This document shows, in pieces, positions 39,099 to 60,129 of a stretch of 64,000 nt of DNA. The position numbers and the translations under genes are program-made. How positions within the stretch are numbered: position 1 is the stretch's first letter; each line of letters starts with the position of its first letter. The stretch comes from a virus. The stretch covers positions 1-64,000 of the IMG/VR virus record IMGVR_UViG_3300034069_000341; one strand, given 5' to 3'. The notes under the pieces were generated by a model, which saw nothing but the letters and a program-made list of their open reading frames with translations, made no database searches and had not been told where the DNA came from.

Positions 39099-40340
39099 TC
39101 ACTCTCCAATCTTCTCTAGGAACCAACGTTCAATCTCTTTGACCGTATGCTCAATACTATCAGACTCAGTTGCATGGTAGTCATGTCGGAACTGGTAAAA
39201 TCTGTCATGTGCCAAATTCAGATCGGGCAAATCGTTCTCCCGGATTCGGGCGTGAAGGATGTTATCCCCGAGGGACAGGAGGGCGCGCGACTTCTCGGTG
39301 TCCAATTCAGTCTTTTCCCGGTGCCAATAACTTCCATCGTACTCGACCAGTAGGTAGCGGTGGTTGTAGTAGAAGATCATGTCTACCTCGACTCCGACCC
39401 TTCCGGAGGCGTAGGTCAACTGATTTAGTCGCAGTCCGTGCGCGGTCAGGGTGAGTTCGGTTTGCTCAGTGAACGCCTCGATAAAGCGACCCTCGATCTG
39501 GCTAGTTCGTTTAGCACATTTTGGGCAGCCATTCCCAGTTGCCCGACTATCGACTCTCGCCTGCCAAGAGTGACCTTCAGCGCACTTCCACCAAGCCTTA
39601 TTATGGGAAGATGCGGATACATCCCCCGGAGTCAGTTCATTCCTATCGAAATCCCATTCTCGCGCCAGTTCAGGGTTATTAATTGACAACCTATTGGCAT
39701 CTGATGCCCGCCGACCACTACAAAAAGGACAGCCACTTCCTCTTGATCGGTCACCAATTATTGCCTGCCAGGAGTGATCGTCTGAACATATCCACCAAGC
39801 CGTCTTGTCAGAGGACACAGTTACGTCACGGGGGGTCAGTTCATTCTTAACGAAATCCCATTCCCTTGCGAGTTCAGGTCTATTGGTCGATAACCTATTA
39901 GTGTCTGTAACCCGTCGTCCGCTGCAAAAAGGGCACCCGCGCCCTCTTGACCGGTCACAAATTTTAGCCTGCCAAGAGTGCCCCTCCGAGCACGCCCACC
40001 AAGCCTTCTTATTAGAAGATATAGCTACCTCATCTGGAGTCAATTCATTTTTGTCGAAATCCCATTCTCTTGCGACCTCAGGATTGTTAATCGACAGACT
40101 GTTAGCGTCTGATACTCTGCGACCACTACAAAAAGGGCACCCCTTTCCACCTGACCGACTATTAATTGCTGCCTGCCAAGAGTGCCCGCTAGAGCACGCC
40201 CAAACCAACTTCATCCTGCTACCATGAGTCAAAGAGTCCAGTCTAGCATACGTCTCCGGGAACATCTCGGATGATCCGTCGTGGTCAATATCACCCCACA
40301 GCGCTACGTCCTTCAAGTACACCTTTTCCCGCGTAGCCAT
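39099..40340 (-). CDS. Four tandem zinc-ribbon (DUF4379-like) repeats fused to a C-terminal Vsr/DUF559-like PD-(D/E)XK nuclease domain
   Basis: 413 aa; W.C..GHSWQA......G.GCP.C every about 64 aa x4; C-end VEVDMIFYYNHRYLLVEYDGSYWH...D. Confidence 0.6.
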   Translation of the reverse strand: MATREKVYLKDVALWGDIDHDGSSEMFPETYARLDSLTHGSRMKLVWACSSGHSWQAAINSRSGGKGCPFCSGRRVSDANSLSINNPEVAREWDFDKNELTPDEVAISSNKKAWWACSEGHSWQAKICDRSRGRGCPFCSGRRVTDTNRLSTNRPELAREWDFVKNELTPRDVTVSSDKTAWWICSDDHSWQAIIGDRSRGSGCPFCSGRRASDANRLSINNPELAREWDFDRNELTPGDVSASSHNKAWWKCAEGHSWQARVDSRATGNGCPKCAKRTSQIEGRFIEAFTEQTELTLTAHGLRLNQLTYASGRVGVEVDMIFYYNHRYLLVEYDGSYWHREKTELDTEKSRALLSLGDNILHARIRENDLPDLNLAHDRFYQFRHDYHATESDSIEHTVKEIERWFLEKIGE

Positions 40341-43319: not shown

Positions 43320-43508
43320 TCAGAGAGTTCCGAAGACGGTCATGTCATCGGCGTAAATATCGGACCAGTCGTAGAACCTCGACCAGTCGGGGGTGGACCA
43401 CCGCTTGCCCTCGTCGTTCGAGAGCGGGTCGCGGCGGACGTATCGGTGAACCTTGTCATCGCGGGTATACCCGACGATCAGGCCAATCTTGCTTGGCTCA
43501 TCTTCCAT
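43320..43508 (-). CDS. Hypothetical protein
   Basis: 62 aa, AAAGGAGG RBS. Confidence 0.45.
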   Translation of the reverse strand: MEDEPSKIGLIVGYTRDDKVHRYVRRDPLSNDEGKRWSTPDWSRFYDWSDIYADDMTVFGTL

Positions 43509-43525: not shown

Positions 43526-43831
43526 TCAGACTGCAACTACGCCCTTTAGCGTAGGGTGAGGATTATACCCTGTCACCTTGAAGTTGTCAATGGTGAAGTC
43601 ATCAATGTAATCAATGTTATCAACGTCACCGACAATCTCAAGTTCGGGGAGGGGCACGTGCTCCCGGCTCAACTGCTCCTTCACCTGGTCTCGGTGATTG
43701 TCGTAGATGTGACAATCACCTCCGACCCAGATGAGCCTACCGACACCATACCCGGTGACGTGAGCCACCATGTGAGTCAGCAGCGCATACGATGCCAGGT
43801 TGAACGGTACACCGAGGAACATGTCTGCGGA
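43526..43831 (-). CDS. thyA: Thymidylate synthase, exon 2 (proposed)
   Basis: SADMFLGVPFNLASYALLTHMVA...GGDCHIY...HP motifs continue ThyA exactly where exon 1 stops. Confidence 0.8.
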   Translation of the reverse strand, partial: SADMFLGVPFNLASYALLTHMVAHVTGYGVGRLIWVGGDCHIYDNHRDQVKEQLSREHVPLPELEIVGDVDNIDYIDDFTIDNFKVTGYNPHPTLKGVVAV

Positions 43832-44887
43832 CTTTTCCTTCGCCTGTGTTCGCTAGGCACAGACCGCCATACGGCTGCTGCATGTCGCCATGCAGAAGAG
43901 ACTATATCACGACCCCTAGGGGTCCCCACCATTTCCGCCCGCTTGGGCGTACTCCCTTTCGGGATAGTCGTTAGGCATTTATGAATCTAGGTCAGACCAT
44001 TTACTCCACTTATCAGACTTGGAGGCTATGCGATTACCCACCGTTGCTACGGCAATTCCGTAGTACTTGGCCGCAGCGGTTCTAGATGGATAAACAGTAC
44101 CCTCGATTACTACGGCTTTGGTGTTCGGAGGTAAAACCCCCAAACGAGCGATAGAGAGTGCCCTTTTTGTCTCTTCAGTGTGCTTCTTTCCGTAGAAGGA
44201 GTTTTTATCCCCAGTACGTTCAGAGGCCACCTTGGACAACTTCTCTCGTTGCTCCGGAGTACGCTTATGCCCCTTAGCCCAAGAGTTACCCAAAGCCCGT
44301 TCACGGGCAGCTGATTTTACTTCGTCGGAGTGAGTCCTACCAGTCATTCCGTTAATATGGCTCCCGTGGATAACCTTACGATCTTCCGGAGACATTGACT
44401 CGTAGCGCTCATTAATAGCGTCCGTAATTCTACTTACTATATCGTCCCGATCAGGATTGAACGTTAGATTATCTCCGCAAGTAGATGGACCTATATTATA
44501 CAAGTCCTTCCCCCGCCCAGAATCTAAAAGACTCTGTTCAGCGAATACCGCGTCCTCCAAGTTTTCAACCTCAGACAAGATTGAAAACGTGAACGCGGGT
44601 TCTCCGAATTCACCCCAGTCCCTTTGGAGACTTGAATTGTGGTGTGTATTGTTCCGGAGGTCTGACTTGTGCCTACTCGTCCGTGCACGGTATCTTGATG
44701 TCCTACCAACATACCGCTTGCCATTAACAGTGTTCTTGATTTCGTAGATGATGTATGTCATGCGTACATCATACCACACTTTTGAAAGGTAGTCCCAGAT
44801 TCAATTTAGCACGGGATCGTCTGCTAGAGAGGTTCCCCGTTTAGATGGGTTTGCTACGCCGGTTTCCCGACGAAGGCGCTCTTACGA
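43832..44887 (-). mobile_element. Group I intron (T4 td-like, about 1056 nt) in thyA
   Basis: Separates two halves of ThyA; carries GIY-YIG ORF; core strings CUAAACGGGGAACCUCUCUAG.AGAC.AUCCCGUGCUAAAUUG and AUAAAUGCCUAACGACUAUCCC...GAUAUAGUCU.CU.UGCAUGG.GACAUGCAGC; U at -1 and terminal G at the proposed splice sites. Confidence 0.8.
43979..44761 (-). CDS. Intron-encoded GIY-YIG homing endonuclease (I-TevI-like architecture)
   Basis: MTYIIYEIKNTVNGKRYVGRT...; three NUMOD3-like GRTHSDEVKSAAR / GHKRTPEQREKLS / GKKHTEETKRALS; C-terminal HTH-like AAKYYGIAVATVGNRI. Confidence 0.8.
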   Translation of the reverse strand: MTYIIYEIKNTVNGKRYVGRTSRYRARTSRHKSDLRNNTHHNSSLQRDWGEFGEPAFTFSILSEVENLEDAVFAEQSLLDSGRGKDLYNIGPSTCGDNLTFNPDRDDIVSRITDAINERYESMSPEDRKVIHGSHINGMTGRTHSDEVKSAARERALGNSWAKGHKRTPEQREKLSKVASERTGDKNSFYGKKHTEETKRALSIARLGVLPPNTKAVVIEGTVYPSRTAAAKYYGIAVATVGNRIASKSDKWSKWSDLDS

Positions 44888-45406
44888 ACGCTGGTAGACC
44901 TGGATCGACAGAACATCATCTTCCTCCACGTAGAACTGGAACATGATGTGACACGGTGCCAGCGCCATTTCCGGAATCGCCGTAGGATTCCACGTGGACA
45001 CAACGTGTCGGCGGGAGTACGGGTCGGTCTTGACGGACTCGATCACCTGAGCAATCTGGTCAACGCCGGGAATCAGCCCGTAGTCATCGTAGTCCTCGCC
45101 CCACCGCCTCCACTGGAACCCGTACATAGGTCCAATGTAACCGTACTTGTCTGCCCACTCGTCCCAGATATGAACGTCGCGATCCTGAAGATACCTAATG
45201 TCCTCCTCCCCTCGGAGGAACCACAGCAGCTCCTCGGCAACCAGACGGAACGGGACTCGCTTGGACGTGATGAGCGGGAACCCGTTTCGCAGGTCATACT
45301 CAATGCGACCCCCGAAGAGCGATGTAGTCCCAGTACCAGTCCGGTCGGGACGACTACTGCCCTCCATCAGGACTTCTCGTAGCATGGTCTCATAGGAGTT
45401 AGCCAC
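44888..45406 (-). CDS. thyA: Thymidylate synthase, exon 1 (proposed)
   Basis: GTG start after GGAGG; DRTGTGT, FPL.T.KR, DEWAD, ALAPCH catalytic Cys, ends ...VYQR. Confidence 0.85.
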
Positions 45407-47839: not shown

Positions 47840-47860
47840 GGTGCCGCCTTTCCTTGCAAG

Positions 47861-47936
47861 TCCCCCTGCCCGGACTCGAACCGGGATCACATTTATTTTG
47901 AGTAAATGCCCTCGTGCCTAATTGGGGTACAGGGGG
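47861..47936 (-). tRNA. tRNA, anticodon loop CUCAAAA (anticodon CAA, Leu-type) but short 5-nt variable region
   Basis: Hand fold: acceptor CCCCCUG/CAGGGGG, A73, anticodon stem AUUUA/UAAAU, T-arm CCCGG-UUCGAGU-CCGGG. Confidence 0.75.
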
Positions 47937-48014: not shown

Positions 48015-48016
48015 CG

Positions 48017-48087
48017 TCCCCTTCCCCGGACTCGAACCGGGACTGTCACGGTTATTCCCGCTGCCTCTGCCGTTGGGCTAGAAGGGG
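48017..48087 (-). tRNA. tRNA-like gene, 71 nt, anticodon loop appears 6 nt (GAAUAA)
   Basis: Acceptor CCCCUUC/GAAGGGG, A73, T-arm CCCGG-UUCGAGU-CCGGG perfect; anticodon arm GCGG/CCGU. Confidence 0.45.
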
Positions 48088-57539: not shown

Positions 57540-58394
57540 ATGCACACAGCATCGCAGGAGCAACTGGCCATCTGGGAGTCCATGACCGACATTGGATTGC
57601 AACTGTTCCCCGTGCGAGGCCGAGGTGGAGTACCGAAGTCACCGGCATTCGGGGTCAAGTGGCAGGAGGTTGCCACCGACGACATGGACCAGATTGCCAC
57701 CTGGGCCAAGAAGACTATGGCGATGGGGGTCTCCTGCGCTCATAGCCGTCTGCTCGTGGTCGATATCGACACGCACGGATCGACTTCCGGCTTTGACACC
57801 CTCGGGATGACTTACGATGAGATGAAGAAGGTATGCACCTACTCGGTGTCCACGCCCTCCGGAGGCGAGCACCTGTACTTCCGACTGCCTCTGGGAGTGC
57901 GTGTCAAGAACTCCCAGGGTAGGTTGGCAATAGGGGTTGACGTGAGGGGCTTCGGCGGGTACGTCGTTGCCGGCGGGTCTGTCCTGGACAACCTGGGGGC
58001 CTACGAGTTGTCCGATGAGGCTGAGATGCTCGGGGAGATTTCGGATGCTCCCGACTGGCTTATCGCCGAGGCGTCCGGTGTCGCGGGCCAGGACCCGGTT
58101 GCTCAGGCACGACGACGAATGGACTCAATCATCGAGCGCGCTCTCAACCCCGAGGGGGGTCTCGCCGAGGGTATCGTCAACAAAGCGCTTGACGATGTGC
58201 AGTGGTCCATCGAGGGCGAGCGCCGCTCTACGCTGCGCGACGCCGCATTCGGGCTGACCCTGAGGGGGATTCTCACCGATGAGGTTGCCGGGAGGCTCAT
58301 GGCTCTGTCCATCAAGCCCGGATTCACTGAGGACGAGGCGTTCAAGACGATCAAGGACGCACACCGAGACGCTATGCGAAAGAGGGAGTTCTGA
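57540..58394 (+). CDS. Bifunctional primase-polymerase (prim-pol) domain protein
   Basis: Start set to ATG 57540 after AAGGAGAG; LLVVDIDTHG catalytic D-x-D, GGYVVAGGS. Confidence 0.7.
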   Translation: MHTASQEQLAIWESMTDIGLQLFPVRGRGGVPKSPAFGVKWQEVATDDMDQIATWAKKTMAMGVSCAHSRLLVVDIDTHGSTSGFDTLGMTYDEMKKVCTYSVSTPSGGEHLYFRLPLGVRVKNSQGRLAIGVDVRGFGGYVVAGGSVLDNLGAYELSDEAEMLGEISDAPDWLIAEASGVAGQDPVAQARRRMDSIIERALNPEGGLAEGIVNKALDDVQWSIEGERRSTLRDAAFGLTLRGILTDEVAGRLMALSIKPGFTEDEAFKTIKDAHRDAMRKREF

Positions 58395-59803
58395 TGGAGG
58401 AGCACGACACGACAGTCCAGGAATACGCGGCGATGTTCCGAGACGTCGGAATCCCGCGTCGCCGTGAGGTCCTTGCCACGTACCAGGAGGTCACGGGCGA
58501 TGTGGGCGCGGAAGAGGAGTTCGAGGCGCTGAGCGGTTTTGGCCCGGAGGAGACGCCGCTTGAGACCCCCGAGGTGAAGACCGACGACCCTGACCACATT
58601 CCCACGGCACAAGAAGAGTTCACGGCTCTGTCCCCCGAGGGGGACCCGTCCTACGTCGCCACGGACGATATGACCGATGAGATGACGGACCAGGAGCGCC
58701 GGAAGTTCGAGCGCGATGTGGAGCGCCGTCGATACGAGGCTCTGGTCTCTCGCACTGCTAATCGTCTGGACGCTGCTGAAGCGTTCTCCGCCGAGGACTC
58801 AGGGCAGACGGAGGTATGGGGCGATGAGATGCTGGACGCCGAAATCCCCGACGAGTCGTTCCTCGTTGAGGGCCTGTGGCCTATGTCCGGTCGAGTCAAC
58901 TTCTCCGCTCAGGCCAAGACCGGCAAGACCACGACTACCGGCGCGCTCGTCTATTCGCTGCTGTCTGGCGAGCCTTTCCTCGGGAAGTGGCCTGTTCGCA
59001 AATTGGACGAGCACGAGTCCATCACCATTTTCGATGTGGAGTCCACGCGCGAACAGGTGATGAAGGCTTATCGCCGAGCGTTCGAATTGCGTACTGGTCG
59101 GCTGCGAGTGGTGCGCTTCCGTGAGAACCGAGCTGGCTTGAACTTCATGGTTGACGCCGCACGTGAGCATATGCTAGACACCTACTCTGGCTCTAGGGTC
59201 TACGTCATGGACAACCAGACACGACTCGCTAAGGCGATGGGCCTTGACACCGACTCGGCAATCGAGGCTGCGTCTATGCTCGCCGCGTGGGATCAACTCG
59301 TGCTCGACATGGGCGGTGAGGAGTCCCTGTGGGTCAATCACGCTGGGCACGATGGTACGCGCTCTCGTGGCTCGTCTGTGCTGCGCGATGACGCTGATGC
59401 TCTGTGGCTCATGGCGAAGGATGCTAGCGGCAAGCGGACCTTCTCCGCCGAAGGTCGAATCGAGGAGGTCTCCAAGGTCAAGGTCGAACTGGTTGACGGC
59501 GTTCCGCTCGTGAACGAGGCTGGGTCCTCTCAGTACGAGCCTCATCAGGCGGAGGATTATGTGCGCCGAGTCCTCATGGAGATTAGCTCGGAGGAAGAGG
59601 GTATGAAGCACAAGGCTCTTTGGGAAGCGGCTCACGGACTCGCCGAGCAGGAGGGCGCTAAGGTCTCGCAGCGGAAGATCAAGGACGCTATTACCAACAT
59701 GATCGAGGACGGATTGATCGACACCGAGGAGGCCCCACGTACTGAGGCAGGTCACGGTGGGGGCACTCTCCACCGACTCTCCGACCTGGAACGGCTGGGC
59801 TGA
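58394..59803 (+). CDS. RepA/DnaB-like (RecA-fold) NTPase with C-terminal winged-helix-like domain
   Basis: 469 aa; Walker A AQAKTGKTT; VYVMDN Walker B-like; C-end EGMKHKALW...VSQRKIKDAI...GGGTLHRL. Confidence 0.65.
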   Translation: MEEHDTTVQEYAAMFRDVGIPRRREVLATYQEVTGDVGAEEEFEALSGFGPEETPLETPEVKTDDPDHIPTAQEEFTALSPEGDPSYVATDDMTDEMTDQERRKFERDVERRRYEALVSRTANRLDAAEAFSAEDSGQTEVWGDEMLDAEIPDESFLVEGLWPMSGRVNFSAQAKTGKTTTTGALVYSLLSGEPFLGKWPVRKLDEHESITIFDVESTREQVMKAYRRAFELRTGRLRVVRFRENRAGLNFMVDAAREHMLDTYSGSRVYVMDNQTRLAKAMGLDTDSAIEAASMLAAWDQLVLDMGGEESLWVNHAGHDGTRSRGSSVLRDDADALWLMAKDASGKRTFSAEGRIEEVSKVKVELVDGVPLVNEAGSSQYEPHQAEDYVRRVLMEISSEEEGMKHKALWEAAHGLAEQEGAKVSQRKIKDAITNMIEDGLIDTEEAPRTEAGHGGGTLHRLSDLERLG

Positions 59804-59854: not shown

Positions 59855-59941
59855 TAAGAAGCCGGGATTCACTCAAAGTCAGTTTTTGGGAAAGTGGAAT
59901 CCGGCCGCATCCGCATGATTCCGGGCTTTTTCGCACCCTTA

Positions 59942-60000
59942 GACCCCGCGTTCCACTATACCCCCCCCCCTTTAGGGGGGGTATAGTGGAACGCGGGGTC
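59942..60000. repeat. 26-bp perfect inverted repeat (hairpin/cruciform)
   Basis: GACCCCGCGTTCCACTATACCCCCCC-CCCTTTA-GGGGGGGTATAGTGGAACGCGGGGTC. Confidence 0.95.
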
Positions 60001-60129
60001 GTGGGGGGCGAAGCCCCGGTTGTTTAATAAGGGTAGCCTAAGTTGTTTGAAGAGCGAGTTGTGCCCGGAGAAGCGGAGGGTGATCTTCTCCTCGGTGGGC
60101 CGGTCGCTTCGCAGGGAGCGGGGATCTAC

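Follow-up and report, generated by a model that had tools for sequence, protein, structure and literature searches.

The question raised by the thymidylate synthase gene (thyA) of the uncultured virus in IMG/VR record IMGVR_UViG_3300034069_000341 is whether the gene is broken, or whether it is interrupted by an intron that is removed from the transcript and, if so, where this intron belongs and whether it still moves. The stretch of DNA analysed (positions 1 to 64,000 of the record, 64,000 nt; the window) carries thyA in two pieces separated by an insert, which in turn encodes an endonuclease. The insert is very probably (probability roughly 0.9) a mobile, self-splicing group I intron of the IA2 (td) type, located in the region of thyA that encodes the active site. 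All coordinates are positions in the window, and the element is located on the - strand; the features are collected in Table 1.

Two - strand open reading frames (ORFs) jointly represent one thymidylate synthase, as had been proposed in an initial annotation made from the letters of this DNA. The ORF at 44882-45406 has the C-terminus ...LSIQVYQRS-stop, the ORF at 43526-43822 has the N-terminus MFLGVPFNLASYALL, and the codons TCC GCA GAC are found directly 5' of the latter. The first piece matches positions 2-169 (E 2e-66) and the second piece positions 167-266 (E 3.5e-37) of the 266 positions of the Pfam Thymidylat_synt profile; the two thyA pieces therefore abut. Exon 1 has a GTG start codon with AAGGAGG before it. 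When the exons are joined, a ThyA of 274 amino acids is obtained, of which residues 4-274 align with the solved thymidylate synthase PDB 4h0r (E 1e-96), and this alignment crosses the junction ...LSIQVYQR|SADMFLGVPFN... unbroken. As read from the exons, joining restores the invariant active-site motif YQRSxDxFLGxPFN, with the insert located between the Arg and the Ser codons of YQR|S; this position is 21 nt (seven codons) upstream of the junction of the T4 td intron, an offset that had been predicted correctly. The splice sites proposed at the outset were also upheld: they provide a U.G pair at ...GCGU|, a terminal G at ...AAAAG|, a P1 helix of 4 bp and a loop of 8 nt, and they are the only pair for which U precedes the 5' site, G precedes the 3' site and the reading frame stays intact. 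The spliced junction would be expected to read ...TACCAGCGT|TCCGCAGAC; the sequence of the intron-less (exon-joined) site is GATGTTCTGTCGATCCAGGTCTACCAGCGTTCCGCAGACATGTTCCTCGGTGTACCGTTC. An in-frame stop in the first few intron codons, as found here, is also present in the T4 td intron and in every relative inserted at the same site.

By its sequence, the insert can be classified as a group I intron similar to those of subgroup IA2 (phage td type); the T4 td-like character that it had been assigned is borne out by homology of the core to td and by covarying helices, and all core helices from P1 to P9.2 could be placed by homology. The last four bases of exon 1 (GCGU) are the exon strand of P1 and pair with GCGC of the internal guide sequence (44876-44879), with U44888 in the U.G pair at the splice site; P1 is kept in all same-site relatives, in one case (contig L006) through a compensatory combination of exon ACGU and guide GCGU. 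For P10, the guide bases GA (44880-44881) pair with UC, the first bases of exon 2, which gives 2 bp (1-3 bp in the relatives). The stem of P2 differs in sequence in every relative, yet is complementary and has a GNRA loop. The strands of the 3' core comprise P7 5' (GACUA), P3 3' (GGUGGG), P7 3' (within GAUAUAGUC, 43900-43908) and P9 (43878-43895). Between P7 and the 3' strand of P3 are located P7.1 (CCC-GAAA-GGG) and P7.2 (CGCC(C)-AAGC-(G)GGCG), and because of their presence the intron is placed in subgroup IA, like td.

Seven introns with their ORFs deleted were aligned for the analysis of structure, i.e. those of the window, of a related contig (L011, see below), of Bacillus phage TimeGriffin, of two metagenomic sequences, and the td introns of T4 and Melville. 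RNAalifold recovered P3, P4, P5, P6, P7.1, P7.2, P8, P9, P9.1 and P9.2 from this alignment unguided; the pairing of the P7 strands, a pseudoknot, was added by hand before the pairs were counted. With P7 included, there are 374 pair cells, of which 99.5% are paired, and 54 pairs, of which 21 show a change on both sides. As controls, the pairing partners were slid by 1-3 columns, which left 35-45% of the cells paired, and the covariation score was reached in none of 500 shuffles. Compensatory changes were found in P3 (four pairs) and P7.2 (three pairs), and P8, P9, P9.1 and P9.2 have also changed on both sides; P4-P7 are invariant, and are therefore supported by the homology to td and not by covariation. 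P1, P2 and P10 were examined by hand and left out of the pair counts (the MAFFT alignment is unreliable in P1-P2); every one of these helices is complementary in all members, and compensatory changes were seen. Furthermore, a blastn search with the insert against 50,697 phage records produced matches in 468 of them (best E 2e-29), including annotated td introns of T4-like phages, so that the likeness is not due to chance; the typical match consists of two pieces (query positions ~36-90 and ~900-1007) that flank the ORF.

The ORF within the intron overlaps, with its last codons and stop, the start of the 3' core. Its predicted product matches the Pfam families GIY-YIG (PF01541), NUMOD3 and I-TevI_DNA-bd, and a homing endonuclease family of PHROG. 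This agrees with the I-TevI-like GIY-YIG protein described initially, for which both the three NUMOD3-like repeats (residues ~136-157, 158-183 and 186-208) and the C-terminal helix-turn-helix, which follows a long linker (I-TevI_DNA-bd, PF20987, residues 207-255; DNA-binding domain of I-TevI, PDB 1i3j, residues 180-255), were recovered. The protein is 28% identical to I-TevI over 251 amino acids (E 3e-30), and its N-terminus matches the I-TevI catalytic domain (PDB 1mk0, E 1e-8). Residues Y6, Y17, R27, H31, H40 and N89 are invariant in a MAFFT alignment of six relatives. E75 represents the catalytic Glu and is located one alignment column off E75 of I-TevI. The zinc finger of I-TevI (FCKCG...CSKC) was not found, as the aligned segment consists of Cys-free NUMOD3 repeats; the endonuclease is therefore I-TevI-like in plan and not an I-TevI orthologue. 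Its gene is full length and apparently intact. A predicted 8-bp hairpin (AUGAUGUA/UACAUCAU; 44744-44776) has the ATG of the endonuclease gene in its loop, which recalls the translational control of I-TevI; here the region folds no better than shuffled sequences (z -0.57), and a regulatory hairpin over the start codon was retained as a hint alone. We know of no endonuclease of the YQR|S site that has been characterised biochemically.

The insertion site, which the initial annotation had regarded as new, has precedents: related introns are located at the same YQR|S position in Bacillus phages Bobb (NC_024792) and TimeGriffin (MW749007), both Herelleviridae, Bastillevirinae, and in the metagenomic phages L006/L007, L008/L009 and L010. 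In all six carriers the intron directly follows the Arg codon of YQR, and the junction reads CGU|UC.; Bobb and TimeGriffin have the identical site (tac cag cgt|tc.), guide (GCGC) and helix set. By this comparison of sequences the element belongs to a lineage present at the same thyA site in these Bacillus phages, and since it shares its site with them, its nearest relatives are the Bacillus-phage introns and not T4 td. The best DNA match is Bacillus phage vB_BspH_TimeGriffin, with cores that are 86% identical (80% over P7.2-P9). Its thymidylate synthase is annotated as two coding sequences, and its intron comprises 298 nt without an ORF (...tat cag cgt|taacaaatgagcgcc...gataatg|tca ggg gac, likewise at YQR|S); this intron is a deletion derivative, because the last bases of the endonuclease ORF (ttagattcataaatgcc) remain in it. 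The closest endonuclease of a cultured phage is Bobb gp222 (43-44% identical; tblastn 43.3%, MAFFT 44%), which has the same domain order and is encoded between two thyA fragments (junction cag cgt|...atg|tca gca gac); its ORF also lies within the P6 loop, and the segment ...GAUUCAUAAAUGCC at the ORF end is shared. The split thyA of Bobb has been described already, and was likened to the beta22 thy intron (PMC4528723). The sequences of P2, P8 and P9.1-P9.2 in the window differ from those of Bobb and TimeGriffin, but the differences are compensated, and Bobb has extra insertions around P7.1 and P7.2. The carriers differ as well, in that Bobb and TimeGriffin are low-GC Bacillus myoviruses, whereas the window represents an actinophage-like siphovirus of ~57% GC. 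The next-closest endonucleases in a collection of 5.8 billion proteins (49%, 43% and 43% identical) are all encoded in thyA, at the same site, in metagenomic phage contigs.

The T4 td intron itself resides in the same gene and has the same IA2 plan, with P7.1 and P7.2, an ORF in P6 and an in-frame stop at the intron start. It differs by its site (FLG|LPFN, 21 nt downstream), by other peripheral helices, and by encoding I-TevI with its zinc finger; the catalytic and C-terminal DNA-binding domains of I-TevI are shared with the endonuclease of the window. The RNA segments that had been likened to td lie within 2 nt of the positions given for them and match the T4 td intron (NC_000866). In the alignment to td that had been suggested as a check, 84% of positions are identical in P3-P7; for the complete intron without its ORF the value is 60%. 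I-TevI cuts its target 23-25 nt upstream of the td site, and YQR|S would thus lie ~2 nt from the corresponding position; each of the two thyA intron lineages could therefore destroy the target of the other, a case of mutual exclusion, and the YQR|S lineage could have arisen by capture of an intron at the cleavage site.

Other known introns resemble the element in part. Phage beta22 of Bacillus subtilis has a td-like group I intron in its thymidylate synthase gene, which we take to be 21 bp from the td site and which would then represent this same site and its founding example; its GIY-YIG ORF is degenerate, whereas the ORF in the window is intact. The arrangement here also resembles that of I-BmoI, a GIY-YIG endonuclease that has repeats of the NUMOD3 type, lacks a zinc finger and is encoded in a thyA group I intron, presumably at the td site; this intron is bacterial and not of a phage, and it is likened here by description. 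In a published compilation, the beta22 thy intron is listed as 392 nt with a pseudo-ORF, and the thyA intron of Bacillus mojavensis with I-BmoI (PMC1995217). Cluster J mycobacteriophages have group I introns in capsid and tail genes, with a LAGLIDADG-like ORF or none (PMC3706429); these are a precedent for introns in such phages, but they are not of the td type, and no sequence relationship to the element was seen.

Evidence on recent movement comes from contig L011 (IMG/VR contig 3300010003_000017), which is ~93% identical to the window over 3.4 kb and carries the same intron. Between the two, the intron as a whole is 99.1% identical (5' part, 100%; endonuclease gene, 99.1%; 3' part, 98.5%), and thyA exons 1 and 2 are 86.2% and 93.1% identical, respectively. 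Fourfold-degenerate sites differ at 1 of 118 positions in the endonuclease gene, at 16 of 77 in exon 1, at 4 of 45 in exon 2 (20 of 122 for both exons), and at 48 of 296 in all flanking genes together (Fisher test for the endonuclease gene, p = 1e-5 versus the thyA exons and 8e-7 versus all flanks). Two changes of L011 fall into the 3' non-coding part, one from C-G to U.G in P9.1 and one at a loop base, and both keep the structure. A near-identical intron within diverged flanks implies that the intron ancestor is much more recent than its surroundings; the introns of the window and of L011 share a recent common ancestry. The intron thus appears to have moved recently between two related phages, for which homing between diverged genomes would produce such a pattern. 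With exons that are ~10-20% diverged at silent sites, the pair can serve as evidence that an intron has moved recently among uncultured phages.

Several points weigh against a mobile, self-splicing intron. P1 has only 4 bp and P10 only 2 bp, and both splicing and cleavage are deduced from anatomy and homology. No clear Shine-Dalgarno sequence precedes the ATG of the endonuclease gene (44761), for which reason its expression is uncertain. The high identity of the intron to that of L011 could be due to gene conversion or strong selection instead of homing, and the first difference in exon 2 is located 4 nt from the 3' splice site, so that any co-conversion tract must be very short. Finally, a scan of the whole window with Rfam in gathering mode had no match. 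The covariance-model search had been suggested in the initial annotation as a test that might refute the intron; it gave nothing in gathering mode and, with laxer filters, 21.4 bits (E 0.0078) for Intron_gpI (RF00028) in the 3' half, relative to a gathering score of 50. As a refutation it is uninformative: the gathering mode also misses the proven T4 td intron, two relatives (TimeGriffin included) and the window's own tRNA, and therefore its miss carries no weight against the intron. In control scans, the ORF-containing T4 td intron scored 40.3 bits and the ORF-less TimeGriffin homologue 64.6 bits (E 4e-16), above the gathering score; the low score of the window is explained by the 810-nt ORF in P6.

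The gene callers returned two ThyA fragments, exon 2 has an in-frame ATG of its own at 43822, and relatives of the endonuclease are known as free-standing genes beside td, e.g. in Acinetobacter phage Apostate. On these grounds the insert might not be spliced at all, thyA being dead or encoding two polypeptides that assemble, with a free-standing endonuclease gene between them. We regard this as most improbable, for a complete group I core with near-complete pairing and compensatory changes surrounds the ORF, P1, P10 and the terminal G are located exactly where joining restores the YQR|S motif, both thyA fragments are conserved as coding sequence, and a break in the active-site region is unlikely for a working split protein; furthermore, self-splicing is established for the homologous td intron of T4. 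A free-standing endonuclease gene of the Apostate type was excluded, since the intron core flanks the ORF here. The locus, annotated as two 'thymidylate synthase' fragments and a 'group I intron endonuclease', should be corrected to one gene and one mobile element, and likewise in the related contigs L005 and L011. A direct arrival from a T4-like phage, which had been implied and which would make the element orthologous to the T4 td intron, is also highly unlikely: such an origin would explain P4-P5 nearly identical to those of T4 td, and P3-P7 with 84% identity to T4 and 87% to Melville, but not the site, which is shared with the Bacillus-phage introns, nor an endonuclease that is 43-49% identical to those of the same site and 28-29% to I-TevI, nor the identity over P7.2-P9 of 60% to T4 against 80% to TimeGriffin, nor the remnant of the ORF 3' end (UUAGAUUCAUAAAUGCC) in common with TimeGriffin.

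An intron that splices, but whose endonuclease is decayed, silenced or repurposed, so that inheritance is now vertical only, is unlikely, though less so. The full-length ORF, with catalytic residues and DNA-binding domain intact, argues against it, and an intron and ORF far younger than their flanks (1/118 versus 48/296) would be hard to obtain by vertical descent. Conversely, the ATG at 44761 has no obvious ribosome-binding site and is enclosed by the predicted hairpin, which is itself not above shuffles; five of the seven codons that differ between the window and L011 are non-synonymous; and the ORF-less derivative in TimeGriffin demonstrates that loss of the endonuclease occurs in this lineage. 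At odds short of even, the element may be the first example from phages of Actinomycetota of a td/Bobb-type thyA intron whose GIY-YIG homing endonuclease is intact, and it may be actively homing among these phages now. If true, one intron lineage would have crossed between phages of three bacterial phyla (Pseudomonadota, Bacillota, Actinomycetota).

For a mobile, self-splicing intron at this site, the following pathway may be proposed from its anatomy. The P3-P8 core, with P7 as the guanosine-binding helix, would direct a free guanosine to attack at 44888|44887, the 5' splice site being defined by P1 with its U.G pair. The freed exon 1 would then attack after the terminal G (43832), aligned by the 2-bp P10 (UC/GA), and ligation would yield CGU|UCC and hence the intact ThyA. 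The UAA in the P1 loop would halt ribosomes on unspliced RNA. During a mixed infection, the endonuclease would cut an intron-less thyA allele near the site, and repair from the intron-bearing genome would copy the intron in (homing).

The carrier had been described as a GC-rich actinophage-like genome. Its actinophage-like character was confirmed by the best matches of three proteins; the term GC-rich overstates a GC content of 57%. The large terminase (TerL) has best matches in phages of Corynebacterium, Gordonia, Arthrobacter, Rhodococcus and Mycobacterium (30-35% identity), the DNA polymerase (PolA) in phages of Glutamicibacter and Brevibacterium (43-46%), and the spliced ThyA in phages of Arthrobacter and Gordonia (~57%), in all of which the gene is unsplit. 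A near-identity search of INPHARED with the window gave short matches to the intron core alone, hence no close cultured relative is known, and a search for the host by means of the endolysin in bacterial genomes found no relatives. The GC content is 49% for the intron, 48% for the endonuclease gene and 56% for the exons; the lower value of the intron fits a foreign origin.

When IMG/VR was scanned with a motif of the P7-P9 core, at least 120 contigs matched, with most matches located in other genes, and among the matches listed only two contigs have a GC content above 55%. In a spread sample of 486 blastn-positive cultured phages there was no actinophage. ORF-less introns with the same P7-P9 core were observed in other, apparently structural genes of the moderately GC-rich uncultured phages L132 (an IMG/VR 3300031867-type contig, 58% GC), L053, L127 and L090; the family therefore extends beyond low-GC phages and beyond genes of nucleotide metabolism. 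The thyA genes of L012, L014 and L015 (ThyA 53-55% identical; 61-62% GC) are uninterrupted. All carriers of the intron have CGT|TC at the junction, as P1 and P10 require it. The intron-less alleles of the most GC-rich contigs L012, L014, L015 and L025 (61-66% GC) have CGC|AGC, and the other intron-less alleles (L013, L016, L017, L024) have other codon pairs, CGT|TC among them. There are precedents for the mechanism, the target gene, the insertion site and the endonuclease family; modestly new are the actinophage-like carrier, the natural case of recent movement, and the CGT|TC junction codons in every carrier. The known range of td/Bobb-type introns is extended to an actinophage-like genome, and the understanding of how such elements work is unchanged by the present case.

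Table 1. Features of the split thyA locus and gene blocks of the window.
Feature	Position	Strand	Evidence
thyA exon 1, 173 codons, ends ...TAC CAG CGT (Y-Q-R)	44888-45406	-	Pfam and sequence
thyA exon 2, 101 codons plus stop, begins TCC GCA GAC ATG TTC CTC GGT (S-A-D-M-F-L-G)	43526-43831	-	Pfam and sequence
Insert, 1056 nt exactly	43832-44887	-	reading of bases
Predicted group I intron, starts UCGUAAGAGCGC..., ends ...GGAAAAG (terminal G at 43832)	43832-44887	-	blastn, alignment, consensus fold, Rfam
In-frame UAA stop, two codons into the intron, within P1 loop	44882-44884	-	sequence
Internal guide sequence GAGCGC	44876-44881	-	complementarity
P2 hairpin CGUCGG-GAAA-CCGGCG, 6-bp stem, GNRA loop	44857-44872	-	complementarity
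5' catalytic core: P3 5' strand CCCAUC (44844-44849), P4, P5, P6 5' strand UGGG	44795-44849	-	alignment, fold
GIY-YIG homing endonuclease gene, 260 amino acids, in P6 loop	43979-44761	-	Pfam, PDB, I-TevI alignment, PHROG
3' catalytic core: P6 3' strand through P9.2 and terminal G	43832-43978	-	Rfam, alignment, fold
Structural and lysis genes	~1.9-32 kb	+	
Replication and nucleotide-metabolism genes	~34-57 kb	-	
Primase-polymerase, AAA_25, DNA methylase	57-64 kb	+	

Inside the 3' end of thyA exon 2, a perfect sigma-70 consensus is present (TTGACA, 17 nt, TATAAT; 12/12; 43562-43590, - strand), upstream of an ORF of 62 amino acids (43320-43508); it could serve the downstream SSB operon as an internal promoter, or be due to chance. 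The ORF at 39099-40340 (- strand) matches the PHROG families 'endonuclease' and 'HNH endonuclease', and probably encodes a second endonuclease of the homing type, free-standing within the replication module. The window is divided by gene orientation and GC skew into the three blocks of Table 1, and no integrase was seen among the window ORFs scanned. ARAGORN predicted a tRNA-Leu(CAA) and a tRNA-like gene 80 nt upstream of it, the 'anticodon' of which is abnormal and has two bases (48016-48087 and 47860-47936, respectively, - strand); Rfam confirmed the tRNA-Leu only (43.7 bits, E-value mode), and the tRNA-like gene may encode a tRNA that is degenerate or unusual. A long near-perfect hairpin (59935-60005) scores ~36 bits against miRNA-precursor models on both strands; this strong palindrome is located just after the AAA_25 helicase-like gene (58394-59803), and may be a terminator or an origin-like element.

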